From an uncultured Spartobacteria bacterium (lineage in GTDB: Bacteria; Verrucomicrobiota; Verrucomicrobiia; Chthoniobacterales; Terrimicrobiaceae), in NCBI GenBank assembly GCA_903915315.1, contig CAIWSO010000313.1, positions 1-31,531 of the forward strand: a stretch of DNA of 31,531 nucleotides, written 5' to 3'. The position numbers were made by a program, and so were the translations under genes. The notes below the pieces were generated by a model. The model did no database searches and had not been told where the DNA came from. It saw only the letters and a list, made by a program, of their open reading frames with translations. Positions 16,666-31,531 of the stretch are shown one piece after another. How positions within the stretch are numbered: position 1 is the stretch's first letter; every line of letters begins with the position of its first letter.

Positions 16666-16848
16666 CTAGCGACTTCCTTGCATCGCAGAACCGAGTGCGC
16701 CACCGCCCTCCCAAGATTGGGGGCGATTCCAAGGAAGAGAACTTCCTGCATGTTGCGCTGATTCCTCTTCGGTTGCGCAGCTGACGAGTCCGCCGGCGGC
16801 AATAAGAATAAGGAGGCTATTCCTCAGGATTTTTAAAGATAACTTCAT
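16666..16848 (-). CDS. Small putative lipoprotein (60 aa)
   Basis: ATG 16848 gives MKLSLKILRNSLLILIAAGGLVSC, with a lipobox LVSC, followed by a short mature peptide containing LPWNRPQSWEG. Overlaps the upstream gene by 32 nt. Confidence 0.65.
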   Translation of the reverse strand: MKLSLKILRNSLLILIAAGGLVSCATEEESAQHAGSSLPWNRPQSWEGGGALGSAMQGSR

Positions 16849-17614
16849 CGCCAGGTTGGATGCTGAGACCACGCGTAATGCTGGTCGGTATGATATCTGC
16901 AATCGAGGTGGAAGGCTCCACGGAAGTGATACGAACGCGTCCGATCTCGGTGGATCCGCGCTTGACGATCAGTTCCGTGTTGCTGAGGACACCATTTTTG
17001 TCACCGATGCTCAGAACCACGAAATTCCAAGCCTGATTGACGGCAAGAACTCTTCCCATGAGATTTTTCCGCGCTGATTTCAGGTTGGCTTGATTTTCCT
17101 TCTGCTTGTAATCGGCGAGTGCGGCTTTTTTGGATTCTAATTCTTCGGTGAGTGATTTATTGAGCCCTTCAAGTTCCGTAATCCGAGTTTGTTTTTCGTC
17201 ATCGGCTGGAGCGGCGGTGGAGGCAGCGGTCGCAGCGGCAACAGCCACTTTCAGGGCTTCGATTTCGTCTCCTTTGGTTTTGAGATCGGTGGTCAAGGTA
17301 GCGATCTCCGCTGTTTTTTCCGTCAGCTTGGTGTTGGCTTCGGTGAGATTGGTCTGGGTGGTGGCAAGTTCGGTTTTAAGTTTCGCGACTTGGGATTCAG
17401 TCTGCTCCAGCTTCGCAGTCAGGACGGTCTTTTCCGCTTCCGAGTCCGTCAATTTTTTCTTTGTTTCCTCAAGTTCGGACTTGGTTTTTTCCAAGTCGGC
17501 TTGGGTGGAAGCCAGTGTCTCTTTCGTTTGAAGAAGGGTTGTTCTGTTAACGTAGCCCACACCTGCGGAGGCAAGAGAGATGACAATCGAAAGAATAATA
17601 AGGATTTTACCCAT
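16817..17614 (-). CDS. Membrane-anchored coiled-coil protein with a C-terminal beta domain
   Basis: Likely start ATG 17614 (MGKILIILSIVISLASAGVGY, a TM anchor). About 150 aa of heptad repeats precede the C-terminal GRVLAVNQAWNFVVLSIGDKNGV...IGRVRITSVE...IQPGDEV. Confidence 0.8.
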   Translation of the reverse strand: MGKILIILSIVISLASAGVGYVNRTTLLQTKETLASTQADLEKTKSELEETKKKLTDSEAEKTVLTAKLEQTESQVAKLKTELATTQTNLTEANTKLTEKTAEIATLTTDLKTKGDEIEALKVAVAAATAASTAAPADDEKQTRITELEGLNKSLTEELESKKAALADYKQKENQANLKSARKNLMGRVLAVNQAWNFVVLSIGDKNGVLSNTELIVKRGSTEIGRVRITSVEPSTSIADIIPTSITRGLSIQPGDEVIFKNPEE

Positions 17615-17773
17615 GAGGTGGAGGAATCGTTGAAAGCAATTTTCTATCTGGCGAAAACGTGCTCCACAAGTGTCAAATTGGGTTTTTTGTTGTTTCTGCG
17701 TTGGTCGTGATGCCTCCCTAAACAAAAGAGTCGGGACAAGACCCCATACCGCGATGGGCGGGGGCTCCTTAAT

Positions 17774-20092
17774 GTGCGCCCCGTGAAAACAAATTTCCAT
17801 GTTGGTCGATTCTTTCTCGCAACATCCTTGGCGGCTTTAGCGGCGGTTTCAACAAGCCCGAATTCAAATGCCGATGAGGGGTCAGGAAGCACTCTGAGTT
17901 CCCACGATAAACCACATAACCAGTATGCCGAGGTCCCACTTTTTCAATCGACCCATGATCGGTTGGATGGCGTTTTGGCCAAGCGCGACTATTTGATTCG
18001 ACTCCCGGAGCACGTTCGTTTCGAAGCCGGCAGTGAGATTCTCCTGACATATCGGGCGTCACCGCTCCTCATGCCCGATGTTTCGACCCTCAGCGTGCGA
18101 CTGAATGATCGCGAACTCACCAGCGTGCGACTGGGGTCTCAAAAAGGGGCATCAAGTCAGGACCCAAGCACGCTCCGCATTCCCGTCAGCGCTGGTATGC
18201 TTCTGCCGGGGTGGAATCGAATCAGCCTCGGTTGTCTCCTTCAAACGACCGAAGAGATGTGCCGTGATGTCGACAACCCCGCCGCTTGGCTGGAAGTTGA
18301 AGCGGGTAGTGCTTTGAAGCTTTCGTATTCAACTGTGCCGTTATTTCCAGAGATCCAGCGATTCCCCCACGCGATGACAGAGCCTCAGCTCCTGGTTTTA
18401 TCTGATCGCTTTGCCACTGGGAGCAAGAAAAAGCAGGAGCCCGTTGTCTCCGTGTTGATGCCTTGGGATGCGGGGGAATCGGAGTTGCGGACGTTTTTGA
18501 TTTGCACCGCCCGAATGGGACAGACGGGATACGTGCGCCCAGAATCAATTTTGTCAGCGGATTTGAGTGCCTTCGATGCCGATTGCGAATCCCGTAACGG
18601 CATCCTTATTGCGACCAAGGAAGCCCTTGCCAGCGTCGATTTGCCGGCCGAACTAAAAAGCACGATCGCGGGACTCAAGAACGGGGAGGGATTGCTGGCT
18701 GAGATCATTGTTGGAGACGCTAAATCCACGCAGCGTCGCTGGATGGTTTTGAGTGGAGGGGATGGTGAGGGGTTGGAAAAAGCCGCACTCACTGTGGGAA
18801 GTTCGATGGCATTAAGAAACACGACCTCGAACCCCCTGATCGTCACTGAAGAGCCGATTGTATCTCCTATCGAGGAAAGAATGGCGCAGCCAAAGACCGG
18901 GGCGGTGAAGCTGGGATCCCTGCCTGGTGGCGACATGATCCTTCGGGGATTGTTCCGGCAAGCGGGCGAGCGGGCGCTTGTTTTCCCTCCTGGATTTCAA
19001 ACGACCTCCCGAAGCCATTTGGACTTAGATTTTTCTCATGCAGGAAACCTAGAAAAAACATCCGCGTTTGATGTGAAGCTGAATGATGTGCTGATTGGCA
19101 GCATTGCTTTGACGCCGGAGAACTCAAATCCAAGCCGCCGGCGCTTGGCTATACCGGCGGGAATCACTGGTCGTGACCTGTCCAAGCTGAGTGTCTCCAG
19201 CTATCTGGATATCGGCCGTGCCGATTGCGCTCACATCGTCGAGGAGCGGGCTTGGCTCAATATTGCGGGATCTTCCATGCTCGATATCAATATTGCTCCA
19301 CTCGAGATCAATGATCTGAGTCGTATCGGCCTGCTCTGTCAGCGGGATGCATTTCTTCGTCGGGCGGCACTTATTGTTCCCGAGTTGCCGAGCCAGGACC
19401 GCGATGAACTCATCAAAACTCTGGCTCTTAACCTCGGCAGCCAGCTTGCCAGTATGCCCATCCTCTGGCCCCAGTTGGCTACCTATGCACCAGGGATACC
19501 TGCTACTGTGACTCGCGTAGAGAAGCGCTCGGGATTGGTTTTAGGATCGGCTTTTCAATGGAGCGAGGCCCTCCCTTCAAAAACTCCACTCGTCATACAA
19601 GCGGTGGACGGGAAAAATGACAAATTGTCCTTGAGGGGAGAGGCGGTCTCAGTGGGCGATTTTGATCCTTCGATGGCTTTTGCCCAGTTGGTTCCATCCC
19701 CATGGACCCAAGGGGAGATCTTTGCCGCGGTCGGCGGTATCTCGGGTTATGGTGGCGGCAGCGCCATCGCGATGCTCACGGATCTCGAAGTCGGAGAGCG
19801 CCTGACCGGAACGGTGGCTGCGATCGATGATCAGAAGAGGATCGTGACTTACGATGTGAGATACATTCAAGAGGTGTCCCTCTCCGAGCAGTTGACACGC
19901 GGATTTGCCTCTGGCGTCACGAAAGAGCAGGCCGAAAACGAAAAAATCGAAAAAGCTGAAGCCCTTACACTGGCTTCTATGATGGACAAGTGGCTGATCG
20001 TTGGGGCCATTTTCACTTTGGCCGTCTTGTTCCTCATTCAACGATTGGCCGTGCGTCGCCGAGAAATCAAAAACAAGGGGAGGGATTTGTGA
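17774..20092 (+). CDS. BcsB-like periplasmic co-synthase subunit (cellulose synthase subunit B family)
   Basis: 772 aa with a signal peptide, an internally duplicated jelly-roll module (SVRLNDRELTSVRL...CRDVDNPAAWLEV versus DVKLNDVLIGSIAL...DCAHIVEERAWLNI), LVPSPW in the second alpha/beta module, and a C-terminal TM anchor (WLIVGAIFTLAVLFLI) with a basic tail. Confidence 0.75.
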   Translation: MRPVKTNFHVGRFFLATSLAALAAVSTSPNSNADEGSGSTLSSHDKPHNQYAEVPLFQSTHDRLDGVLAKRDYLIRLPEHVRFEAGSEILLTYRASPLLMPDVSTLSVRLNDRELTSVRLGSQKGASSQDPSTLRIPVSAGMLLPGWNRISLGCLLQTTEEMCRDVDNPAAWLEVEAGSALKLSYSTVPLFPEIQRFPHAMTEPQLLVLSDRFATGSKKKQEPVVSVLMPWDAGESELRTFLICTARMGQTGYVRPESILSADLSAFDADCESRNGILIATKEALASVDLPAELKSTIAGLKNGEGLLAEIIVGDAKSTQRRWMVLSGGDGEGLEKAALTVGSSMALRNTTSNPLIVTEEPIVSPIEERMAQPKTGAVKLGSLPGGDMILRGLFRQAGERALVFPPGFQTTSRSHLDLDFSHAGNLEKTSAFDVKLNDVLIGSIALTPENSNPSRRRLAIPAGITGRDLSKLSVSSYLDIGRADCAHIVEERAWLNIAGSSMLDINIAPLEINDLSRIGLLCQRDAFLRRAALIVPELPSQDRDELIKTLALNLGSQLASMPILWPQLATYAPGIPATVTRVEKRSGLVLGSAFQWSEALPSKTPLVIQAVDGKNDKLSLRGEAVSVGDFDPSMAFAQLVPSPWTQGEIFAAVGGISGYGGGSAIAMLTDLEVGERLTGTVAAIDDQKRIVTYDVRYIQEVSLSEQLTRGFASGVTKEQAENEKIEKAEALTLASMMDKWLIVGAIFTLAVLFLIQRLAVRRREIKNKGRDL

Positions 20093-21345
20093 GAATCGTG
20101 CTACTGGCTCTCATTGCGGTGATCGGGTTGCCGTTCGCCTTTGCTGCCGGGACCGAGGGGGGCCGAAAAACCCTTCTGGTTTACGATACCATCGCCAAGC
20201 CGTTCTCTCTCATGAACGAGATCGATCCGATCCTCATGGGCTTGACCCGATTCGATGCGGAGCCCGAAAAAATCGAAGCCGCCAAGCTTCAAGCATCCGA
20301 TATCGAGAGGGCTGATTTTATTGTGCTGGTGGGGGTTGGCGGCTCGCCGACGCTCAGTCCCGATTGCATAAGGATGTTGCAGCGCGCAAAAAAACCGCTT
20401 CTGTGCGTCGGGCACGCTGTCAACGGACCTGGCTCGGGCACCTTAAAAAACCAACCGATTCAGAAAGCCGTCGTCGATTATCGCGAGACCACATGGCCCG
20501 TGCGATTGGATCCATTTTTCCGGTTGTCAGCGGGCGAGTCTCAAATTCTCTCCCAGGTGGTGGGCGGTGGGGCCCCTTTGCCGCTCGCATGGCGATCGGG
20601 GAACAGATTCGCATTTGCCTCCCTTCCCGGTGAACCCGTTCTGGCGATGATCTTCTCCGATCTTCTTCTGGATTTTTACGGGGTGAAAAATATTCCCTCA
20701 ACAGGGCTGGTTTTCATGCTGGATGATTACCATCCGGCCTCCGATCCTTCCATGTTGCGACGTTTGTCGGATTACATGGCCTACAAGCATATCCCCTTCA
20801 TCGTGCTCACTCAGTCGCGGGATGTGCCGGCGGATGCGACCGATCTCATGCCGAGGGAAACGTATTTGGATTCGCTCCGCTACGCCCAGGCGCGCGGGGC
20901 AAGGATTTTTCTGGATGCGTCGGCGGATCCTGTTCTGGATCGCGAGAGTTTCAGTGCCGATGGGGTGATCCCCATGGGCGCTGAAAGCCGTCCGACTATC
21001 TCCATCGAAAGCGGCGATAACTTCACGCTGTATGTCGGAAGCCGCTATTTCCAGGATACGCCAGGGAGCGATCCAGTGCCCTACCGAAGTCATGCTCCGC
21101 TTCTCCTGGCCAATGGCGGGGTTCTATTACCCGCAAACATCTTGGGGGGGATGGACGGAATTGCCCTTGATGAAGTCCGGAAAAATATCGGCCAGATTGC
21201 GCGGTTGCGTGGGGGCGTGGCGGGCATCGTCATGCCGGCTTGGCTCCCCTTTCAGCATGTCCGGGATCTTGTGGACGCCTGTCTGCAGTCCGCCCTTCCC
21301 GTGATAGATCCCCTCGGTTTTGGTCCGAACCCCGACTCCCAATAA
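20089..21345 (+). CDS. DUF2334-like polysaccharide deacetylase-fold protein, probably catalytically degenerate
   Basis: GTG 20089 overlaps the upstream TGA and follows GGGGAGGG. Signal peptide present. The segment FMLDDYHPASDPSMLRRLSDYMAYKHIPF resembles the DUF2334 N-terminal motif, but the expected His motifs are not visible. Confidence 0.6.
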   Translation: MRIVLLALIAVIGLPFAFAAGTEGGRKTLLVYDTIAKPFSLMNEIDPILMGLTRFDAEPEKIEAAKLQASDIERADFIVLVGVGGSPTLSPDCIRMLQRAKKPLLCVGHAVNGPGSGTLKNQPIQKAVVDYRETTWPVRLDPFFRLSAGESQILSQVVGGGAPLPLAWRSGNRFAFASLPGEPVLAMIFSDLLLDFYGVKNIPSTGLVFMLDDYHPASDPSMLRRLSDYMAYKHIPFIVLTQSRDVPADATDLMPRETYLDSLRYAQARGARIFLDASADPVLDRESFSADGVIPMGAESRPTISIESGDNFTLYVGSRYFQDTPGSDPVPYRSHAPLLLANGGVLLPANILGGMDGIALDEVRKNIGQIARLRGGVAGIVMPAWLPFQHVRDLVDACLQSALPVIDPLGFGPNPDSQ

Positions 21346-21356
21346 TTTTTGTAAAA

Positions 21357-22982
21357 ATGAAAACCAACCCACTGATTTGTATTCTCGTTCTCGTCACCAG
21401 CAGCATTGTTGCAGCGCAGGACGGAGTGACTCTCGATCCTGCCGTGGAGGCTGTCCGTCTCTCCAATAACGGCCAGCATGCGGAATCCATCGAATGCCTG
21501 AAAAATGCCCTGCTTGGAGATCCTGGAAATGAGAAGTTGAAATACCGTCTCGCGGGGGAATTGGTTTTTGACCATCGCCCAGCGGAGGCGCGCGCCTGCT
21601 TGGAGGAGTTGAGTCGCTCGTGGAATGCCGATATGGCATCCATGGCGGCGAACAGCCTCGCCACTCTCGACCGCTTGGAGGAGGCGGAAAAAAAAGCCCG
21701 AGCACGCCCATCATCGCCGGAAGCTCTCCGTCAGCAGGCCGAATACCAAGCCCGAAAAGAACGTCTCGAGCGCCAGCAGAAAGTCTTTGATCTCATCGCC
21801 GCCAATAAGGATGACGATGCCGTCGCGCAGATCGACGAGTTGGAGGTATTGGGTGACTCCAATACGGCGATGCGGCTCGAGAAGGCCTATGCGCTTTCCC
21901 GACTCTCCCGTAATGACGAGGCGTTGAATGTGCTCAAGGCCATCCCTCTTGAAGAGGATCCGGATGGAACTGCCCGACTCGCCCTTGCTAGCTTGCTGTC
22001 GCGCGATGGTCGCACAACGGAGGCTGTCAGAATCTGGAGGAACATCCGAGAGTCGGGCGGTGACTCTGCTGCCAGCCGCACGGCCGCGCAGGAGATGAGG
22101 GTCCTTGCTCCCGCCTACAACACGGATTGTTGGGCGTGGGGAGAGCTCGACCTCTATGGCACATATCTCTCTCGATATGAGATTGGTGTTGCGGCAGGTC
22201 GACTCCGGGAGGGAACATTTGTGCCTGGAGCCCGCTGGATTGAGCCGTTCATTCAGGCGGATTTCAGTTTGGATTCAAGTTCCTCGAGTTCCTCGGGAGG
22301 ACAGGGGCTTTCGACCATCTATAATGAAAACTTGGCTGGATTCCATGCGGGCGTCCGTGTTCGTCCATTCGCCGCACAATCCTTTGTTCTGTATGTGCTA
22401 GGCGGCACTCAAAAAGATCTTCGCGGCACCACCCAGCATCGCGCGAAATGGTTCTCCGAACTCATCGCTGGGGTCAACGGCTACTGGGCTTGGGGGCCGG
22501 GCAATGAATGGATTGAAAGCGATCTCGAGGCGGGAGGCTTGAGCGGAAAGGCGTCCCAAGACAGCTCTAAAGCTTTTCGCTCGTGGTCACCCAGGGGATG
22601 GACACCCGTTCGAGGGAGGTATGATTGGTTTGTCGAGGCCGGTGGAGATGCCGCTTACTACAGTCGTCTTCCGGATGGCATTGCCTATCTCCAGTCACGC
22701 CAAGGTGTCCGCTTTCTCCAATGCGGCAAGTCCGCCGCTTTCGACGCCTATGCACTCCAAAACCTTACGATGGATACGAAGGGGAACTACTACGACAACT
22801 ACTTTGAAGCCGGTCCCGGCATCCGATTGATCACTTCACCCGTTGGGGCTGCCGTCTTCACGACGAGCGTCGACTACCTTGTTGGTTCGTATCTGGGGCG
22901 GAACTACGCGAATACGCGGGGCGATACCGCCAGCACGTATTCGGACTTTCGCATCACTGCCGCCCTCTCACTCCGCTGGTAA
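21357..22982 (+). CDS. TPR + C-terminal beta-barrel outer-membrane protein (NfrA/BcsC/PgaA-type export porin by analogy)
   Basis: ATG 21357 gives the signal peptide MKTNPLICILVLVTSSIVAAQ. About 250 aa of TPR-like helices precede amphipathic aromatic-rich beta strands. The chain ends FRITAALSLRW, with the terminal aromatic residue typical of BAM substrates. Confidence 0.75.
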   Translation: MKTNPLICILVLVTSSIVAAQDGVTLDPAVEAVRLSNNGQHAESIECLKNALLGDPGNEKLKYRLAGELVFDHRPAEARACLEELSRSWNADMASMAANSLATLDRLEEAEKKARARPSSPEALRQQAEYQARKERLERQQKVFDLIAANKDDDAVAQIDELEVLGDSNTAMRLEKAYALSRLSRNDEALNVLKAIPLEEDPDGTARLALASLLSRDGRTTEAVRIWRNIRESGGDSAASRTAAQEMRVLAPAYNTDCWAWGELDLYGTYLSRYEIGVAAGRLREGTFVPGARWIEPFIQADFSLDSSSSSSSGGQGLSTIYNENLAGFHAGVRVRPFAAQSFVLYVLGGTQKDLRGTTQHRAKWFSELIAGVNGYWAWGPGNEWIESDLEAGGLSGKASQDSSKAFRSWSPRGWTPVRGRYDWFVEAGGDAAYYSRLPDGIAYLQSRQGVRFLQCGKSAAFDAYALQNLTMDTKGNYYDNYFEAGPGIRLITSPVGAAVFTTSVDYLVGSYLGRNYANTRGDTASTYSDFRITAALSLRW

Positions 22983-22987
22983 ATCTC

Positions 22988-25657
22988 ATGGACACTCTTC
23001 ATTCAGTTTTTGTCATTCTCGCCTACACCGCCGCTGTTGGTTTCCTGGTTTTCGGGATCGACGACGTCTTTTTTGATCTGCAATTCCTGCGCTATCTGCG
23101 GAGTAAAAAAGAAAGCGTTCCGATCACTCTCAATGAACTGAAAAATGAGCCGGAGCAATTGATTGCCATTTACATCCCAGCATGGATGGAAGGCGGCATC
23201 ATTAATCGCATGGCGGAGTATGCCAAAAAGGTTCTCATTTACGACCGCTACGATATTTTTATTGGGGTCTATCCGAATGATGCGGAAACAAACCGATGCG
23301 TGGATGAGTTGGTGCGGGTTTCTCCGCGCATTCACAAGGCCGTAACGCCAAACCCGGGGCCGACCTCGAAGGCGGATTGCCTGAATGCGATTTATAAGGC
23401 CATGCTCAGTCATGAAATTCCGGGCAAACGCGAGTATGCTATCATTGCCCTGCACGATGCTGAGGATGTTCTGCATCCGCTGATTCTCAAGGTTTACAAC
23501 TACCATGTGCCCCGGACTTTTGACATGGGCCAAGTGCCGGTTTTTCCACTCGAGTTGACCCCCTGGCGTTATTGGGTGGGGAATTCGTATATCGACGAGT
23601 TTTCCGAATGGCATATGAAAGACATGTTCGCCCGCGAAGCGATGGGAGGTATGGTGCCATCCGCGGGAGTGGGGACTGCGTTCTCCCGTGCCGCCATCGA
23701 CTTTCTGGCTAAAAAATATGAGGTCGGCCCCTTTCTGATCGGGAGTTTAGCGGAGGATTACATGGTGGGAATGGAGCTGTGCCGCTCGGGGTTCCGTACC
23801 GGATTTATTGACTATCCGGTGGAGCGCGAGGTCCTGCGCCGTGATAAGGAGGGGCGGACGATTTCCAGTCGTAAAGTCACCGAACGCGTGGCTGTTCGCG
23901 AAAATTTTCCACTTGAGTTTATTCAGGCGGTGAAACAAAAGGCCCGTTGGATCGTGGGAACGGCCTTTCAGGGGTGGGAGCACGGAGGTTGGTGGGGATC
24001 GACGGCCGTGCGATACACTTTGTTGCGGGACCGTCGCGCACCGCTCGTTCATTGCATCAACGCGAGCGGATATTTTGTGATGGCCTATGTGATCGCCGAG
24101 TTTCTGGTCCAGCACTCGGGGCTTCGAAATAGCCTTTTTCTCCGGCCCTTGTTTCAGGAAAACAGTCTTCTTTGGCGGATCGTTTTGGTGGACACGGCGC
24201 TGCTCTGCTACCGGGTCACGCAGAAGGTGTCCTGCGTCTCAGATGCCTATGGTCTTCGCCAAGGGCTTTTTGCGATTCCGCGCTATCCGGTCGTTAACTT
24301 GATCAATATGACCGCCACCATTCGCGCGGGCTGGATTTATATGCAGCATCGGCTTTTCAAAAAACCGCTGGCATGGACAAAGACGACCCATGTTTTTCCA
24401 GGGGTCGCGGAGCTACAAGAGTTCGCCACTTCGATCGAAGAGTTGCTTGTGGATGAGGGCCTCGTGAGCAGAGAGGACTTGGATAAAATCCTCGAAAAAA
24501 ACAAAGGGAGTTCGGCTCCAAGCGCCCTCTTGCAAATGCAGCTCATGGATGAAGAGCAGTTCACCTCCGTGTGGAGGCGTTTTTCTGGCCTTAAAAGCTT
24601 CGTTGTGACTCCTGAGGATATCCCGATGGGGGAACTCAATCGGTGGCAGGAATCGGATGCCGTTCGATTCGGCGGGATGCCTTGCGCTGAGACGGAGGAC
24701 GGATCCTCTCTGTTCGGTTTCGTCGAGCCACCCAAGCCAGAGGATCTGGGTGAAATCGCGGCCATCTTTGGCTCCCCCGTGGAAGCCCGCCTCATACCGC
24801 CGTCGAATTTCATTTCGCTTAGGAATACGATTTACCCACGGCGTGTCCTTCAAAGCCAGCAGCTTTGCCCACTCAACGGGGTATTCCAAGCCTTAAGCGC
24901 TTCGGATCAACGCAAGGTTCGTGAGTTTCAAATGACGCGTCGGCGATCTCTCTCGGATGCCATGATGCATCTGGGATTCATTCCCGCTGCGGAAGTGAGG
25001 CGTCACTACTCCGAGTCGCTCGGCGTCGAGGGGGCCGACTTTTCAAAATTGACCCTCAGTATATCGATTATGAGAACGCTTGGCCCTTTGTTTTGCGAAG
25101 TTCACGGACTCCTTCCACTGAATGACGGGAGTATCGGTGTGATGAACCCGATTCACCCAGATACCATCGCCCGCATTCAGGGTTTACTTGGATCTGCGAT
25201 TCCTTTCCGGGTCGATACGCCACCAGCTTTCATGAAAATGTGGCACGACTTCATGGTTCTGCAGTTCTCCCAGGATTTCTTGATGGAGAACCTAGTGGAA
25301 TCGAAGGTTCTTCTTTCCGATCACGCCGTGCGGGTCAAAAAAATGCAGCGCTTGATCGAGGGACCGGTAGATCGTCTGTTGGTGCAACTGGGGCTTGTGA
25401 ACAAGAAGCAGTTATTCCAGGCGATGCGGCAGACCTCTGGCCTCGAGGTGGCGCAAGCGGGGGATGCGCCCATTGGTCTCGAGGCCGAGGAATTGCTCGC
25501 TCCAGGCTTCGCCGCGCGAAGCGGGATCATCATTCATCAAATCCGTGATGACGGTATCACTTTCCGCCTCACAAATCTGCCGTCCGAAAATGACCTGATT
25601 GAGGTCACGGAACGGTGCGCGGGAATGCCGGTGAGCTTCAAAATTCAAAATCCATGA
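22988..25657 (+). CDS. nfrB: NfrB-family processive GT2 glycosyltransferase with C-terminal MshEN-like repeats
   Basis: Close motif match to E. coli NfrB as I recall it: GIDDVFFD, IPAW, GVYPND, PGPTSKADCLN, LHDAED, YIDEFSE, VPSAGVGTAFSR, SLAEDY, VRENFP, QKARW, RDR, and WTKTTHVFP immediately followed by an MshEN-like region. Confidence 0.9.
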   Translation: MDTLHSVFVILAYTAAVGFLVFGIDDVFFDLQFLRYLRSKKESVPITLNELKNEPEQLIAIYIPAWMEGGIINRMAEYAKKVLIYDRYDIFIGVYPNDAETNRCVDELVRVSPRIHKAVTPNPGPTSKADCLNAIYKAMLSHEIPGKREYAIIALHDAEDVLHPLILKVYNYHVPRTFDMGQVPVFPLELTPWRYWVGNSYIDEFSEWHMKDMFAREAMGGMVPSAGVGTAFSRAAIDFLAKKYEVGPFLIGSLAEDYMVGMELCRSGFRTGFIDYPVEREVLRRDKEGRTISSRKVTERVAVRENFPLEFIQAVKQKARWIVGTAFQGWEHGGWWGSTAVRYTLLRDRRAPLVHCINASGYFVMAYVIAEFLVQHSGLRNSLFLRPLFQENSLLWRIVLVDTALLCYRVTQKVSCVSDAYGLRQGLFAIPRYPVVNLINMTATIRAGWIYMQHRLFKKPLAWTKTTHVFPGVAELQEFATSIEELLVDEGLVSREDLDKILEKNKGSSAPSALLQMQLMDEEQFTSVWRRFSGLKSFVVTPEDIPMGELNRWQESDAVRFGGMPCAETEDGSSLFGFVEPPKPEDLGEIAAIFGSPVEARLIPPSNFISLRNTIYPRRVLQSQQLCPLNGVFQALSASDQRKVREFQMTRRRSLSDAMMHLGFIPAAEVRRHYSESLGVEGADFSKLTLSISIMRTLGPLFCEVHGLLPLNDGSIGVMNPIHPDTIARIQGLLGSAIPFRVDTPPAFMKMWHDFMVLQFSQDFLMENLVESKVLLSDHAVRVKKMQRLIEGPVDRLLVQLGLVNKKQLFQAMRQTSGLEVAQAGDAPIGLEAEELLAPGFAARSGIIIHQIRDDGITFRLTNLPSENDLIEVTERCAGMPVSFKIQNP

Positions 25658-26847
25658 AAATTCAAAACCATCGAAGTTCCAAAAAGGGTACCGTAGCCGT
25701 CATAGTGGGCACGCGTCCGGAAGCTATTAAGCTAGCTCCGATTATCCAGCAACTCCAGGCCTCCAAAAAATTGCAACCGCTCATTGTCTCGACCTCGCAA
25801 CATGGCGAGATGGTGGGCCAGATATTCTCGAACTTCGGGATCACCGCAGATCTCGACTTGGAGGTCATGCGTCCTAGGCAAAGTCTGTGGGATCTGAGTG
25901 CCATTCTCTCTACTGAATTGGGAAAACTTTTCAGCACCACGCAAATCAACGCTGTCTTGGTGCAGGGAGATACGACATCGGCATTCATCGGGGGGCTTTG
26001 TGCCTTCTACAATAAAATCCCGCTGGGGCACGTGGAGGCAGGTCTTCGTTCGCACAACCGGTATTCCCCGTTTCCCGAGGAGCTAAACCGAACGATGCTC
26101 AGCCGCCTTTCTAGCTGGCACTTTGCCCCCACCGAGTATTCAGCGGAGCTTTTGAGAAAGGAAAATATCCCTGAAAATACCATTTATGTTTCCGGCAACA
26201 CGGTGGTGGATGCGTTGCATTGGATGGTCGATCGGCTCAAGCCGCGCAGTCTTCCAGGTGGTCTCATGGATGGCTCTCGTAAGCTTATTCTCGTGACCTG
26301 CCATCGCAGAGAAAACCTCGGCCTGCCCATGCGTTCGGTGGCTCTGGCTATCAAGTATATCGCGGAGAGCCATCCGGAGGTGAATATCCTCTTTCCGATG
26401 CATCCCAACCCCCTCGTGCGCGAATCCATTATTCCCATTCTCGCCCACCAACGCGGTGTTTTTCTTTGTGAGCCGTTGAACTATGATGAGTTTCTGGACG
26501 TTCTCAAAAAATCTCACATCGTCCTCTCCGATTCCGGCGGCGTCCAAGAGGAGGCCACGGCGCTCGGGAAGCCGGTTTTAGTGCTGCGGCGCGAAACCGA
26601 GCGACCGGAGGGCGTTGAAGCTGGAACCCTCCGCTTGGTCGGCACGGATGTGCAGGACATCCTGCGCGAAACCGAGAGATTGCTTTCGAATGACGACGAT
26701 TATCTCGCGATGACAAAGGGGTCCAGTATCTACGGTGACGGCCATGCTTCAGAAAAAATCATCCGAATTCTGGAGGATCAATTGGCCACCTCGGAATGCT
26801 GTATGCCTATTCCGTCTGCACAAGAGCGCAGGCACTTTGCCCATTGA
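25654..26847 (+). CDS. wecB: UDP-N-acetylglucosamine 2-epimerase (non-hydrolysing), makes UDP-ManNAc
   Basis: The ATG at 25654 overlaps the nfrB stop (ATGA). Contains GTRPEAIKLAP, VQGDTTS, GHVEAGLRS, PFPEELNR, VTCHRRENLG, HPNP and SDSGGVQEEA...RRETERPEG. Confidence 0.95.
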   Translation: MKIQNHRSSKKGTVAVIVGTRPEAIKLAPIIQQLQASKKLQPLIVSTSQHGEMVGQIFSNFGITADLDLEVMRPRQSLWDLSAILSTELGKLFSTTQINAVLVQGDTTSAFIGGLCAFYNKIPLGHVEAGLRSHNRYSPFPEELNRTMLSRLSSWHFAPTEYSAELLRKENIPENTIYVSGNTVVDALHWMVDRLKPRSLPGGLMDGSRKLILVTCHRRENLGLPMRSVALAIKYIAESHPEVNILFPMHPNPLVRESIIPILAHQRGVFLCEPLNYDEFLDVLKKSHIVLSDSGGVQEEATALGKPVLVLRRETERPEGVEAGTLRLVGTDVQDILRETERLLSNDDDYLAMTKGSSIYGDGHASEKIIRILEDQLATSECCMPIPSAQERRHFAH

Positions 26848-26855
26848 AATCCACT

Positions 26856-27254
26856 ATGAAACCCATTATCCCCCTGCCTCCGATTTTACTCATCGATGAT
26901 GATCCACTTGTCATCGAGACCCTGCGCGATCTTTGCGAGAGCATGGAATGCCATCGCCAACTTCACCATCTCGATACCGGAAGCGCCTTCGATGCGGCTG
27001 CCGATCCCACGCTGGGCCTCATCATTTGCGACTATCGTTTCCCGAGTTCGAGCGGCGTTTCTTTTATCGAGCAGGTTCGCAAGCGGGGTATTGAAACACC
27101 CGTTCTCTTCATTTCGGGAACACCTGACAGCGATGCCGTATTGAAAGCGGCAAATCTCAAGCGGACTGCGTTTCTTTCCAAGCCATTCACGATTTCACGA
27201 TTCCGCGAAGCCATTTACGGGCTGCTGGAGTTAAGCCCATCGGTTGCCGCATAG
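26856..27254 (+). CDS. Stand-alone response regulator receiver (CheY-like)
   Basis: 132 aa from ATG 26856. Has the acidic pocket LLIDDD, phospho-acceptor ICDYRFP, switch residue FISG and conserved Lys LSKPF, with no output domain. Confidence 0.88.
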   Translation: MKPIIPLPPILLIDDDPLVIETLRDLCESMECHRQLHHLDTGSAFDAAADPTLGLIICDYRFPSSSGVSFIEQVRKRGIETPVLFISGTPDSDAVLKAANLKRTAFLSKPFTISRFREAIYGLLELSPSVAA

Positions 27255-29774
27255 TTAATCACAGCGAATCGCTCGTGCTGGGGGGATGCGCGAGGCGCGG
27301 CGGGAGGGCATCCATGCGGCAAAGACAGCCGCAGGAATAATCCATAACGGCGTTGTTAAAAGCACATCCAGAGGATAGCGAAGTTCAATCGTCCATCCAA
27401 AAAACGCCTTGTTGATCACCCAAGTGAGAATCATGGCCATGCTCGCCCCGCAGGCGACTCCGATGAGTGAGGCAAGAAGACCGATCATGGCGGCCTCCGA
27501 TAGAACTAGGCATTGGATTTGGGCGCGGGAGGCGCCTTGGGAGCGAAGGACGCCGACTTCGCGTTCCCGCTCGAGTACAAGAGTTGTGAGGGAAAGGAGG
27601 ACTCCTGCAATGGCCACAACGACTGCGATTGTCCGAAGAACAGAGGTGACGGCAAAAGTCTGATCAAAAATCTCTAAGACCCGTTGGCGAAGGTCCGCAT
27701 TGGTGTAAATCGAAAATTCGCCCTCGTGGCTGAAGGTTTCACGAAAGTCCGCGCCGAGTGCTGCCGTTGCCGAGGAATCTTTGAGTGTGATGGACAAGGA
27801 GTGGAGGCGCTCGTCGTTCCAATATTCCGAAAATGTGGTTCGCTCGATCATCACAAGTCCACTATCGCGCGTGAAATCTTTAATGATACCGACAACAGTG
27901 AATCTTGCAGCGCCCTTGGGTGACGTGAATTCAAGGGTATCGCCGGGTTCCGTCCCGTGCTTGGTGGAAAAGCTCTCCGAGACGGCCACCATGCCTGTTT
28001 TGTGGAACTGTTCACGGGCCCCATCTAGCGCTCGAACGAAATCAAATTCTCCGCGGGCTTGGCCGTCAATGACCGCCAAGGTGGCTGTTTTTTCTCCCCA
28101 GGGAACCGGCATTTCGCGAAAGGTGCCTAGTTCCTTGACGCGCGGATCGCGACGTATCCAATCGACGGCATTTGCCGGCATGAAGCTGGTGAGGCCTGCG
28201 ATTTCGTTCGCTGCTGGGGCGATAAAGAGATCCGCAACCAGCGTTTGGCCGAGCCATGTGGTGACACTGGCTCTAAATGAATGGATCATCACCGAAACAC
28301 TCACTGTCATTGCTGCAGCCACCGCGAGGGCGGCGATGGTGACGGCATTTCGATGTAGCGATCGCGTTAAATGCTGGCCGGCTAGGCGAACCAACCAACC
28401 CGGACCGCGAACAACGGAGCAAAACGCATTCACTGTCACGGGAACAAGCAGAGAGAATCCGGCGATAAGCAGCCCGACGGCAACGAATCCCAGCAAGCGC
28501 CCGCCGCCAGTGAGAGTCCAGTAGGAAATAATAGAAGCCAAAGCCAGAGCGCAGATACCAAAAAGACCCCAGCGTTTGGATTGGATGCAGAAGGAATCCA
28601 TCAAGGATCCATTTCTCAAAACAATCGCCGGATCGCATGCGGCGGCCTCGGCTGCGGGTCGCCAGGCCGCGAGCAGAGACGAGCCGACGCCGACGACTAG
28701 AGCGAGAGCAATCTGATCGGGCTCGATGAAAATGCGGTCGATGGAGATCAGCGCATAGAGGGAGGAAATGGTCGTCCCCACGGGGGCCGCAAGGAGGGAT
28801 GCTAGCGGCCCTGCGATTCCGATGCCCAAGAGGGTTCCGAGCAACCCTTCGGCAGCTCCCTCACCGAGAAAAAGACTCGTGACCTCAGTCTTGGTTGCAC
28901 CGTTGGCACGAAGGATGCCGATCTCGTGTCGGCGACGCACGATTGATGAAGACAGACTATTATAAATCAAAAAGACACCGACCACCATGGATACTAAGCT
29001 GAGTGCGGTGAGGTTGAGTTGGAAGGCGGCCAGCATCACTTCGGTATCCGAGCCCCTGCGAGCGGGCGGGCCCACTATTGCATCCGGAGGTGCTATTTTT
29101 CGGAGTGCGGCGATGACGGGTTCCATCCGAAGCGGATCGGTGACTTGAATCTGAATGGAGGTTAAGCGCCCCTGCCGATCGAGGAGTTCTTGAGCCCAGC
29201 CGATATCCATCGCTGCCACTCTGGGGTCAGCCGTGACGAGCGCGTCGTCGGTTTTAAGCTCAAAGGAGGGGATGAGCGTGACGGATTTTCCTGCAGCGAG
29301 TACCCGAAGAGGTCCAGAAGCTAGGCGCGAAGAGGATACGGCAATGACGTTTGGTTCGCGCATCCATTTTTCAAGGTCTATGGATGCTCCACTCGGAGAT
29401 TGAAGTTCAAACGCGCGCAAATTCCCGCCAGTGAAAGGATCGACGCCAAGGAGGCGAAAGTAATCGCCCGGAAATTCGGGGAGGGTGACGACCCCTTCCA
29501 ACAAGGGCGTGGCTGCGATGACACCGTGTGTCGCGGCGACAAGCGGGAAGAGCGTTTCGGGTAAATCTCCACGTATTTCCAGGTGGGCTCGGCCGGCGAC
29601 GAGGCCGACCGCATTGCGAAAGCTTTTTAAGGCCCCCCTATTGGCAATCTGGATGGATAAAAAGACGGCAATCCCGATCGCGATGCTGAGAATGTTGAGC
29701 GATGGCAGGAGAGGATGCCTGATCCATTGGCGAATGATCTGCCGCCAAAAGAGTGTGCCGAACCGAGGCGTCAT
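27255..29774 (-). CDS. ABC transporter permease with two FtsX/MacB-type domains
   Basis: 839 aa with two halves, each a TM helix, periplasmic domain and FtsX segment (RRRHEIGILRANGAT; EREREVGVLRSQGAS). Confidence 0.9.
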   Translation of the reverse strand: MTPRFGTLFWRQIIRQWIRHPLLPSLNILSIAIGIAVFLSIQIANRGALKSFRNAVGLVAGRAHLEIRGDLPETLFPLVAATHGVIAATPLLEGVVTLPEFPGDYFRLLGVDPFTGGNLRAFELQSPSGASIDLEKWMREPNVIAVSSSRLASGPLRVLAAGKSVTLIPSFELKTDDALVTADPRVAAMDIGWAQELLDRQGRLTSIQIQVTDPLRMEPVIAALRKIAPPDAIVGPPARRGSDTEVMLAAFQLNLTALSLVSMVVGVFLIYNSLSSSIVRRRHEIGILRANGATKTEVTSLFLGEGAAEGLLGTLLGIGIAGPLASLLAAPVGTTISSLYALISIDRIFIEPDQIALALVVGVGSSLLAAWRPAAEAAACDPAIVLRNGSLMDSFCIQSKRWGLFGICALALASIISYWTLTGGGRLLGFVAVGLLIAGFSLLVPVTVNAFCSVVRGPGWLVRLAGQHLTRSLHRNAVTIAALAVAAAMTVSVSVMIHSFRASVTTWLGQTLVADLFIAPAANEIAGLTSFMPANAVDWIRRDPRVKELGTFREMPVPWGEKTATLAVIDGQARGEFDFVRALDGAREQFHKTGMVAVSESFSTKHGTEPGDTLEFTSPKGAARFTVVGIIKDFTRDSGLVMIERTTFSEYWNDERLHSLSITLKDSSATAALGADFRETFSHEGEFSIYTNADLRQRVLEIFDQTFAVTSVLRTIAVVVAIAGVLLSLTTLVLEREREVGVLRSQGASRAQIQCLVLSEAAMIGLLASLIGVACGASMAMILTWVINKAFFGWTIELRYPLDVLLTTPLWIIPAAVFAAWMPSRRASRIPPARAIRCD

Positions 29775-31531
29775 TCCGGCACTTTGGCAGCGGCTTTGTG
29801 AAGAAGATTTTGGAGCCGCTTGACCGCTTGCGGCGAGGAGAATTTGCCGCCCTCCTTATTGTAAATATAGAAGGAATCCATCGCCACATCCATCTCGGTC
29901 GTGATGCGCGAAATCTCAATGCAGGCGTCGGCCACGCCCATAGCCCGGAGGAGATCGTAAAGCAAGCCGAGGCGATCGGGGGTCTGGATGTCAACCAGCG
30001 TGTAGGCGGGGTGTGAATCGTTATCGATCGTGATCCGGGTGGGGAGATCGAATTCTTGTGAAAGCCGGTAGGTCAGAAGTCGGGTGTCTTTGCTAATGAG
30101 GGGCGTGAAGTCGTATTCCTCGACACCGAGAGATTCGGCAAGGCGGCTTTCCACGGCTTGCATATCGCGGGGACTACTGACCGGTTGAAGGTTGGTGCTG
30201 GCTACGCGAAAGATATCCAGCGCCAGGCTGTCCGTGCGGGTATAAATGTCAGCACTCAGGATGTTGAGTTTCACGGAAAGGAACGCGCCGGCAATGCGCT
30301 CGAGGAGTCGTGGGCGGTCCCATCCGCAGACCCACACTTCTGTGTAGCCTTTCTCGGGCTTCGGAATCCAGCGGAAGGCGGGCGCAAGAGCAAGCGATTC
30401 GTCTGCATCGCGCCGCTCGAAAAACAATTGGAATAAATTGAGGTGCTCGGCAATTTCCTCTGGCTCGTAACTTAAGAAGTAACGGGCAGGCATGAACTGA
30501 AAATGGGCATCGCAGGCGTCTCGGAATTCCGGGCCGAGTTTTTTCATGGCAACGTCCCTTTGCTGAAGCCTGTCGCGGCGGCTTTGTTCCATGGCATCGA
30601 CTCCACCCTCCAGGTATTGCTTGGTTCGGCGGTAGAGCATCCACACCAAACCCTCTTTCCAGTCCGACCAGTTCTGGTCGCTGGTACCCATGCCATCCGC
30701 GAGCGTCAGAAGCATGAGGGCGTCGAGGTTTTTTCGGTTTCCAATGATGCGGGCAAATTCCTCGGTGGTCGTGGGATCATCGAGGTTTCGCGTTTGCGAC
30801 ATTTTCGACATCAAGTAGTGCGAATCCACAAGCGTGATCAGCATGCGGCGGCGATCGGGGGTGAGTTGGAGGCGTCGGGCGACCTTGTGCGCCAAGAGAG
30901 CGCTGGCTTCTTCATGGTGGCGGGTGTTCGCGGATTTTCCCACATCGTGGAGGAGAATGGCGAGGTAGAGGATAGCCGGGTCCTCCAGTTTCTGAAAAAT
31001 CTGACGATAACCGCGGAGTTTCGGTGAGTCCGCAAACAGAACGGCATCCAGCTTTTCGATGCAAACGAGCGTGTGTTCGTCCGCCGTGTATCGGTGGTAG
31101 AACTCGTGTTGAACAAGGCAGTCGAGATCACCGAATTCCGGGATGTATCGGCCGAGTACTCCAAGGTCATGCATCAGTCGAAGAGTGCGACCGACTTCTC
31201 CCTTGCGGGAAAGAATGGCGAGGAAAGTCTCGCGAGCCATGCTTGCATACTGGAATGTGCGGTCAATCAGGTGCAGGCGACGGGCGACGAGATCGGCGAG
31301 TTCGGGGTGGAACTCGAGTTGACGCACTTGGGCGTGGTGGAAGGCCCGCATCAAGCGATACGGGTCGTCATTGAATATATCACGGGACTCGGGCTCGATA
31401 CGGCCGTTGCTGATGATGAAGCGGTCGAGTTTTTCGGGTTTCTGGCGAACACCGAAAAGTCGGAGAAGTCCGGAGCGGGCGGGCTGGGGGATGGCCTCCA
31501 TTTTCCGCAAGGCGCTCTCGGTGACTAAATA
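29771..31531 (-). CDS. glnD: [Protein-PII] uridylyltransferase, 3' part (5' end lies outside the window)
   Basis: The frame is open to the window edge (YLVTESA-LRKM). Contains LVQHEFYHRYTADEHTL, HD motif LLHDVGK, and two ACT domains (DRPRLL...ADIYTR; DRLGLLYDL...DSFY). Its stop overlaps the permease ATG. Confidence 0.93.
   Translation of the reverse strand, partial: YLVTESALRKMEAIPQPARSGLLRLFGVRQKPEKLDRFIISNGRIEPESRDIFNDDPYRLMRAFHHAQVRQLEFHPELADLVARRLHLIDRTFQYASMARETFLAILSRKGEVGRTLRLMHDLGVLGRYIPEFGDLDCLVQHEFYHRYTADEHTLVCIEKLDAVLFADSPKLRGYRQIFQKLEDPAILYLAILLHDVGKSANTRHHEEASALLAHKVARRLQLTPDRRRMLITLVDSHYLMSKMSQTRNLDDPTTTEEFARIIGNRKNLDALMLLTLADGMGTSDQNWSDWKEGLVWMLYRRTKQYLEGGVDAMEQSRRDRLQQRDVAMKKLGPEFRDACDAHFQFMPARYFLSYEPEEIAEHLNLFQLFFERRDADESLALAPAFRWIPKPEKGYTEVWVCGWDRPRLLERIAGAFLSVKLNILSADIYTRTDSLALDIFRVASTNLQPVSSPRDMQAVESRLAESLGVEEYDFTPLISKDTRLLTYRLSQEFDLPTRITIDNDSHPAYTLVDIQTPDRLGLLYDLLRAMGVADACIEISRITTEMDVAMDSFYIYNKEGGKFSSPQAVKRLQNLLHKAAAKVPE

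Follow-up and report, generated by a model that had tools for sequence, protein, structure and literature searches.

The exopolysaccharide synthase NfrB of Escherichia coli, known from the NfrB-NfrA-YbcH/N4 glycan receptor system (PMC8669469, PMC8669472), is one of few such enzymes that are directly switched on by cyclic di-GMP (c-di-GMP) through an MshEN domain. It combines a family 2 glycosyltransferase (GT2) with DxD and QxxRW motifs, two transmembrane helices and an MshEN tail. Among 1,841 NfrB homologues surveyed by Junkermeier and Hengge, mainly from Proteobacteria and rarely from Gram-positive bacteria, 1,705 had a conserved MshEN domain; the rest were not described. The MshEN fold was defined on the N-domain of the ATPase MshE of Vibrio cholerae (5HTL; PMC5013675), and degenerate MshEN domains are known in secretion ATPases (PMC5013675). 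Three consecutive MshEN/GSPII modules form the N-terminal array of the pilus ATPase PilF of Thermus thermophilus (6F8L, 8PDK, 9G1W; PMC11731258), and triple GSPII arrays have been reported only for Deinococcus-Thermus PilF (2024 paper, PMC11731258). Here, a stretch of 31,531 nt (the window; contig CAIWSO010000313.1) from an uncultured Spartobacteria bacterium of the Verrucomicrobiota was analysed. It encodes an NfrB-like synthase of 889 amino acids (aa) whose C-terminal tail consists of three MshEN-fold modules, in all of which the c-di-GMP contact triplets are replaced. In full-text literature searches, no paper turned up that describes such a synthase, with its three degenerate MshEN modules, or its link to the receiver gene treated below.

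The gene and the parts of its product are as follows.

22988..25657, + strand: nfrB-like gene, 889 aa, with an ATG start and a TGA stop that overlaps the ATG of wecB (ATGA); from the open reading frame (ORF) list and the sequence.
23162..24094, + strand: GT2 catalytic domain, aa 59-369 (Pfam PF13641 3.4e-31, PF13632 2.8e-29).
24413..24862, + strand: repeat 1, aa 476-625, MshEN fold, corresponding in position to the MshEN domain of E. coli NfrB.
24863..25258, + strand: repeat 2, aa 626-757, MshEN-like, holding a conserved LGPLFCEVHGLLPL...NPIHP block.
25259..25654, + strand: repeat 3, aa 758-889, MshEN fold.

Residues 476-889 of this NfrB-type synthase are three tandem MshEN/GSPII-fold modules. 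A preliminary description, made from the sequence alone, had placed three MshEN-like repeats behind the GT domain at aa 482-616, 653-744 and 764-889. The repeats were borne out by self-comparison, by AlphaFold models and by matches to MshE, and the five strings quoted at aa 482, 509, 654, 764 and 793 were all located there. The boundaries are better drawn at about 476-625, 626-757 and 758-889; moreover, a very degenerate first half-motif of repeat 2, at about 630-651, had been overlooked. The profile alignment and structure prediction that the description had proposed as checks showed that the repeats adopt the MshEN fold. The protein is also longer than its E. coli K-12 counterpart, as had been stated (889 against 745 aa).

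The repeats were compared with each other by hhalign of sub-alignments from 15 family members. Repeat 1 matched repeat 3 with a probability of 93% (E 3.7e-7) and in a register common to all three repeats, repeat 2 matched repeat 3 at 66% (E 5.5e-5), and repeat 1 matched repeat 2 at E 2.4e-3. An AlphaFold2 model of residues 470-889, built from a 32-sequence alignment, reached a mean confidence (pLDDT) of 90.8 and a global score (pTM) of 0.86. Because Foldseek and VIA-align searches with the whole tail placed repeat 1 alone, a second AlphaFold model was made of residues 622-889 (pLDDT 91.4, pTM 0.89). In these models each of three successive units is a four-helix bundle followed by an alpha/beta subdomain.

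Repeat 1 superposed on MshE 5HTL with Z 10.3 over 138 residues (VIA-align) and also matched Xanthomonas PilB_N and XpsE_N at Z 10; the hhalign comparison of its family with residues 475-745 of E. coli NfrB gave 96.9% (E 1.7e-10). For repeat 3, the superposition on MshE 5HTL_B covered 127 residues with Z 12.5. When 48,161 chains were scanned exhaustively, its top seven matches were all MshEN, GSPII or T2SSE_N domains, the next match having Z 6.4, and its profile matched PilF at 3e-14 across all three GSPII domains and MshE at 3.8e-4. For repeat 2, the profile matched MshE (E 1.1e-7), PilF (1.6e-7) and PilF GSPII-A (5e-5) in the PDB, and the C-subdomain matched EpsE N1 and GspE at Z 6.0-6.2. The whole of repeat 2 went unmatched in the 622-889 model because repeat 3 won each structure alignment, so that the assignment of repeat 2 is based on profiles and on the C-subdomain. 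PilF was the best PDB sequence match. Pfam PF05157 gave nothing on single repeats and only 25 bits on the whole tail.

Some other matches were rejected. TAL effectors, which had the top E-values of the repeat 2 profile, are an artefact with no single significant stretch: a resemblance of 13 residues (LGPLFCELHGLLP versus the TALE repeat LLPVLCQAHGLTP) was summed over about 20 repeats. The spurious matches come from the conserved block of repeat 2, whose likeness to the core of the TALE repeat is a chance one. A match to the C-terminus of fumarase C, and fumarase and CARD matches at Z 4-7, reflect generic helical-bundle similarity.

The array thus compares with the described ones as follows. 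Repeats 1 and 3 share the fold and the hydrophobic heptad skeleton of MshE, whose domain sits on an ATPase, whereas the window's modules are attached to a glycosyltransferase; Pfam found no ATPase domain in the 889-aa protein, and the three-module array lies C-terminal to the GT2 domain. The PilF array is likewise threefold but is N-terminal on a pilus ATPase. Two of the three PilF domains bind c-di-GMP, GSPII-A being blind to it, whereas none of the window's modules keeps the motif. The half-motifs concerned are these.

24431..24583, + strand: motif pair of repeat 1; motif I at aa 482-505 (SIE for PLG/RLG), motif II at aa 509-532 (SAP for RLG).
Repeat 2, aa 654-677: motif II (SLS, preceded by R653).
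Repeat 3, aa 764-787: motif I (FLM); aa 793-816: motif II (PVD).

In the hhalign alignment S482-I483-E484 falls on P489-L490-G491 of E. coli NfrB, and S509-A510-P511 on R517-L518-G519. Motif position 3, a Gly in MshE (G11 and G40) and in E. coli NfrB (G491), is occupied by E484, P511, S656, M766 and D795. In motif II of repeat 1 the two Leu are replaced by F525 and W529, and the terminal Gln as well as the RLG triplets of the MshE motif are gone from the tail. Motif II of repeat 2 (R-SLS...G) is the least degenerate, with the Leu kept and a small Ser at the Gly position. The MshEN motif consists of tandem stretches of 24 residues, RLGxx(LVI)(LVI)xxG(LVI)(LVI)xxxxLxxxLxxQ; its strict, core and relaxed forms (Wang 2016) had no match in this protein or in ten relatives. 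Since PF05157 models the C-subdomain and not the 53-residue motif, NF053729, the curated NCBIfam model of that c-di-GMP motif with a cut-off of 38 bits, served as the motif test. The window protein scored 22.0 bits in repeat 1 and 14.1 bits in repeat 3, with no hit in repeat 2; as controls, the MshEN domain of E. coli NfrB scored 53.5 bits and the three repeats of P0058, a distant relative with canonical motifs, scored 72.4, 37.9 and 35.9 bits. The claim that RLG is replaced at every motif was upheld by the absent pattern match, the scores below cut-off and the substitution of all Gly positions. E. coli NfrB itself departs from the RLG pattern in motif I, which is R-PLG and has a Gln at the turn. 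E. coli NfrB (L004) also carries a second, partial motif pair at aa 670-745 (PLGKFLVTEGVIS...), which scored 28.5 bits, below the cut-off.

Published mutants bear on these positions. The MshE variants G11L and G40I bind c-di-GMP poorly, if at all, and changes such as G11V and G40L have cost XpsE its binding (PMC5013675). The most damaging mutation known from E. coli NfrB is G491L, which impairs function (PMC8669469). PilF's GSPII-B domain, on the other hand, binds with nanomolar affinity without the Arg (PMC11731258). As the Arg is dispensable in PilF and E. coli motif I reads R-PLG, the argument draws on the model score and on what stands at the Gly, Leu and Gln positions, and not just on the letters RLG. 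Judged from the loss of these motifs together with the genome context given below, the tail is very probably blind to c-di-GMP. XpsE_N (2D27/2D28), EpsE N1 with EpsL (2BH1) and Xanthomonas PilB_N with PilZ (7LKM), with which the tail shares its fold at Z 10-12, lost c-di-GMP binding through changes at the same positions and act through a protein partner (XpsL for XpsE_N).

The replacement residues were counted in 29 family members, down to about 25% identity. In repeat 1, position 3 of motif I was E in 25, D in three and S in one, positions 1-3 of motif II were S in 27, A in 27 and P in 28, and neither position-3 column ever held Gly. The two Leu positions of motif II were F and W in 29 of 29 each. 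In repeat 3, motif II had P in 28, V or I in 26 and D in 25. The half-motif triplets can be written S-I/V-E, S-A-P, S-L-S/A, x-L-hydrophobic and P-V-D. P0058, P0057 and P0052, distant relatives whose motifs are canonical, show Gly in these columns. Compared with three close orthologues, the ratio of nonsynonymous to synonymous substitution rates (dN/dS, NG86) was 0.02-0.09 per repeat and 0.03-0.04 for the GT domain. The degenerate motifs are a conserved new state, not decay. The family of this tail is narrow: only 33 clusters (50% identity) of 1.84 billion representatives were found at E <= 1e-3, and the named members are Terrimicrobiaceae or unclassified metagenome-assembled genomes.

Repeat 2 contains, in addition, the near-invariant block LGPLFCE(V/L)HGLLPL...NPxHP (window positions 25094-25156, aa 703-723). 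Its His706 and His723 are kept down to degenerate relatives of 25% identity but not in canonical P0058; the block could be a metal or contact site.

P0058 is a canonical counterpart for comparison. This metagenomic protein (JGI, 891 aa) likewise joins an NfrB-like GT2 to three MshEN modules (three PF05157 stretches) beside a BcsB-like gene, but it keeps RLG-type motifs, is about 20% identical in the tail, and has no WecB or receiver gene on its 10-kb contig. A search with P0058 for more canonical triple-MshEN synthases, done with a word-based method of limited sensitivity, returned essentially P0058 itself and perhaps P0089.

The machinery for c-di-GMP was then sought in the host and its congeners. 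The window's genome comprises 2.5 Mb in 589 contigs and is 87% complete. The preliminary description had suggested counting GGDEF and EAL genes, and none was matched in this genome, nor was PilZ (0 matches each), whereas control genomes were positive; in this the host differs from E. coli. A crude search of six-frame ORFs with the pattern G[GAS][DE]EF gave 10 strings, none of them in a GGDEF domain, in agreement with the profile null. One protein of the HD-GYP family (HD_5) was found, combining a receiver (REC) domain, a coiled coil and an HD-GYP-like domain (G000:C136:2109-2591, - strand), and its motifs are degenerate (YD for HD, GFP for GYP). Of 24 genomes of the genus, 23 yielded the NfrB tail but only six a GGDEF match. 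Among the 23 congeners with a completeness of 90% or more, five have GGDEF, one of these as an 87-aa fragment; the other 18 lack it and nearly all keep the gene. In G009, a 100% complete genome in 40 contigs, the synthase is present and GGDEF was not found. Because the synthase occurs in congeners without GGDEF, c-di-GMP cannot be an obligatory activator across the clade.

The same genome also encodes three PilB/GspE-type ATPases (G000:C471, C481 and C398; L005-L007) with good Pfam MshEN matches and N-terminal motif pairs without RLG, such as HVT.../PIE... and DYI....

The synthase gene lies in an operon with the following members.

17774..22982, + strand: upstream operon genes, BcsB-like (17774-20092), DUF2334-like (to 21345) and tetratricopeptide repeat (TPR; to 22982), from Pfam and NCBIfam.
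25654..26847, + strand: wecB, UDP-GlcNAc 2-epimerase (Pfam Epimerase_2 1.2e-103, TIGR00236 4.5e-130), with the ATGA overlap.
26856..27254, + strand: stand-alone receiver (REC), 132 aa, candidate regulatory partner (Pfam Response_reg 2.4e-17).

The co-oriented order is therefore BcsB-like, DUF2334-like, TPR, NfrB, WecB and receiver, and the order from BcsB-like to WecB is common to 10 congeneric genomes. The ATG of the nfrB-like gene lies 5 nt 3' of the end of the TPR gene, codon 482 begins at 24431, and the stop codon occupies 25655-25657. The 889-aa protein shares with E. coli NfrB the two transmembrane helices and the GT2 signatures, DAED at 157 (DxD) and QKARW at 317 (QxxRW); at the position of the TED motif of E. 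coli it reads AED (aa 255-257, Thr to Ala). Its best NCBIfam match is NfrB NF008411, with 450.6 bits over residues 7-668, which is below the equivalog cut-off of 1170. On this match it is an NfrB homologue and not an equivalog. The genetic link to WecB, the supplier of UDP-ManNAc, is common to both systems. The partners differ: E. coli NfrB works with NfrA (TPR plus beta-barrel) and YbcH, whereas the window operon has BcsB-like and DUF2334-like genes and a 580-aa TPR protein and is without YbcH. E. coli NfrB also has a linked diguanylate cyclase, in place of which the window operon has the receiver gene.

The receiver is the only signalling gene in the operon, and it is conserved beside it in 11 loci, including those of 30%-identical relatives. 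It adjoins wecB in the window and in genomes G021, G004, G016, G023, G014 and G008. Its identity is 95% in G021 and 46% in G014; in G004, G016, G023 and G008, where it follows wecB, it reaches about 80%, against only about 53% for the NfrB tail. The receiver stays in the P0016, P0019, P0034 and P0060 loci (30-49% identical relatives) despite rearranged gene order: in P0016 it directly follows wecB, in P0019 and P0034 one opposite-strand gene lies between, and in P0060 it has moved upstream along with wecB. No receiver was found on the 10-kb contig of P0058. The P0019 locus (L037:12881-17813) continues after the receiver with a hybrid histidine kinase, a receiver, a PAS histidine kinase and a HATPase protein, a cluster that is possibly a cognate phosphorelay.

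A subgroup with proteins of 841 aa lacks a segment that corresponds to the following part of the window.

24857..25000, + strand: aa about 624-671, the repeat 2 four-helix bundle, whose deletion marks the 841-aa clade (alignment, secondary structure, gene contexts and tree).

The receiver is absent from all five loci of this subgroup, and no orthologue was found genome-wide in G009, G018 and G020, the control G016 being positive at 4e-61. The maximum-likelihood tree unites the subgroup in a single clade (100/100), which lies within lineages that have the receiver. This would fit a course in which the receiver was lost first and the subdomain on which it docked afterwards, though it is no more than suggestive. 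A strict coupling of the receiver to an intact repeat 2 was considered and rejected because of G011.

In two further genomes, G012 (L028:3155-4615) and G013 (L029:4441-5940), the triple MshEN-like module is encoded by itself, as a protein of about 490 aa with 39% identity to the window's tail; with this query, neither genome yielded the NfrB GT domain. The module of G012 is followed by a ParA/MinD-like ATPase with weak similarity to BcsQ, and divergently upstream of it lies a coiled-coil protein. The triple module has or can acquire a role beyond cis-regulation of a synthase.

Taken together, these observations make it reasonably likely that the tail serves as a module for protein interaction that does not depend on c-di-GMP and that the receiver possibly drives. 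The processive NfrB-type GT2 and the co-operonic WecB would most likely make an exopolysaccharide that contains ManNAc. The compact three-module cytoplasmic tail would descend from c-di-GMP-binding modules whose binding was since lost, the R-L-G contact triplet of each half-motif having been swapped for a different, conserved triplet. The block may now act as a protein-interaction and regulatory platform, as other degenerate T2SSE_N domains do; this role is suggested by analogy, and protein-binding precedents of this kind (7LKM, 2D28 and 2BH1) are among the top structure matches. The partners of XpsE_N, EpsE N1 and PilB_N are defined; for the window's tail, triplicated on a glycosyltransferase, the receiver is the candidate partner. 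As input, this receiver, encoded two genes downstream, would be the most likely, and it would act at or close to the repeat 2 four-helix bundle.

The preliminary description had proposed that the synthase is either constitutive or controlled by another ligand or a protein, with an expanded scaffold domain. This proposal is supported by the loss of the Gly, the failed motif model, the missing GGDEF and the purifying selection; the choice among constitutive activity, a ligand and a protein partner is narrowed by them. Purifying selection and the conserved receiver neighbour favour protein regulation over a dead domain. That the stand-alone receiver is the tail's input or partner can be put forward tentatively from gene neighbourhood, at rather less than even chances. 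A somewhat bolder and more doubtful version would have the second-messenger module rewired to a two-component input, the phosphorylated receiver docking on the remodelled bundle of repeat 2 and switching the synthase on. If this were true, the receiver would do in bacteria without c-di-GMP what c-di-GMP does in E. coli NfrB, and the triple module, also in its free-standing form, may be a general adaptor.

Several points speak against a protein-driven, c-di-GMP-independent tail. In motif II of repeat 2 the R, the L and the turn Gly are retained along with a small residue, and motif rules are not absolute, given the Arg-less GSPII-B of PilF (PMC11731258). The genome is incomplete, at the 87% stated above, and contains the one REC-HD-GYP-like protein, although the motifs of the latter are degenerate. 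The five GGDEF-bearing congeners carry the same degenerate motifs. The P0034 receiver (L035:13011-13421) has Ser for the phospho-acceptor Asp and misses the conserved Lys; it looks like a pseudo-receiver, and its Ser hints that binding may matter more than phosphotransfer. G011 is without the receiver while its repeat 2 is intact, and it forms an unresolved trichotomy with the 841-aa clade. Receiver loss and repeat 2 deletion were probably a single evolutionary event. Finally, the module stands alone in G012 and G013, and therefore its role cannot be only cis-regulation.

The alternative that survives best, although unlikely, is a purely structural or constitutive scaffold (oligomerisation, docking or positioning in the cell) without signal input, the synthase being controlled at the level of expression only. 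The predicted three-domain block is compact (pTM 0.86-0.89), the receiver was dispensable in the 841-aa clade and G011 while the synthase was kept, and the module of G012 and G013 has a ParA/MinD-like ATPase and a coiled-coil protein as neighbours, and this coiled-coil gene also flanks the window operon. A scaffold does not, however, explain that the linkage to the receiver survives gene-order rearrangements down to 30% identity or that the substituted pocket residues are near-invariant, which suggests a specific contact; moreover, the MshEN domain of the E. coli homologue is an allosteric switch (PMC8669469).

It is more improbable that a remodelled pocket lets the repeats bind another small ligand, such as c-di-AMP, a different cyclic oligonucleotide or some metabolite. 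The conserved SAP, F525 and W529, and C703, H706 and H723 of repeat 2, look as expected of a specific site, the genome encodes one c-di-AMP cyclase of the DAC type, and a CdaA gene lies a few genes away in the P0034 locus. Against this, canonical MshEN excludes c-di-AMP and other nucleotides (PMC5013675), the acidic E484 and D795 at two Gly positions disfavour a ligand that bears phosphate, and the CdaA-GlmM neighbourhood is a common unit by itself.

Least probable of all is non-canonical binding of c-di-GMP by one or more repeats, with a synthase still activated by it: the hydrophobic motif skeleton, the residues kept in motif II of repeat 2 and of repeat 3 (P-V...G-L-V), PilF GSPII-B, the HD-GYP-like protein of an 87% complete genome and the 1-3 GGDEF genes of five congeners would allow it, but both Gly of every pair are replaced where G11L and G40I abolish binding in MshE, NF053729 stays far below a cut-off that the controls pass, the genome has no GGDEF, EAL or PilZ match, 18 of 23 high-quality congeners lack GGDEF yet keep the gene under purifying selection, and the catalytic motifs of the HD-GYP-like protein are degenerate.

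The surroundings of the operon were also recorded. A coiled-coil protein with weak crescentin/SMC-like matches lies divergently upstream (16817-17800, - strand); homologues also lie next to the operon of G021 and of G014 and next to G012's stand-alone triple module. On the opposite strand downstream, 29771-31510 (-) and 27255-29774 (-) hold a duplicated FtsX/MacB-type permease (839 aa) and an HD-plus-ACT protein resembling the C-terminal part of GlnD, a pair that is also found 3' of the operon in the P0016 locus. G022 (L031:2895-6922) has a reduced locus in which a BcsB-like gene, a 235-aa frame with the C-part of repeat 2 plus repeat 3, and wecB stand in a row, without the DUF2334-like gene, the TPR gene and the GT domain.

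These results extend triple GSPII/MshEN arrays beyond Deinococcus-Thermus PilF. They show the fate of the NfrB switch in a clade where diguanylate cyclases are largely lacking: the fold was kept and triplicated, and the pocket was rewritten. The family is thus a natural test case for the repurposing of a second-messenger receptor, and the domain name alone is insufficient to annotate synthases that contain MshEN as c-di-GMP effectors. The CheY-like receiver is a concrete and testable candidate for the input that may have replaced c-di-GMP.

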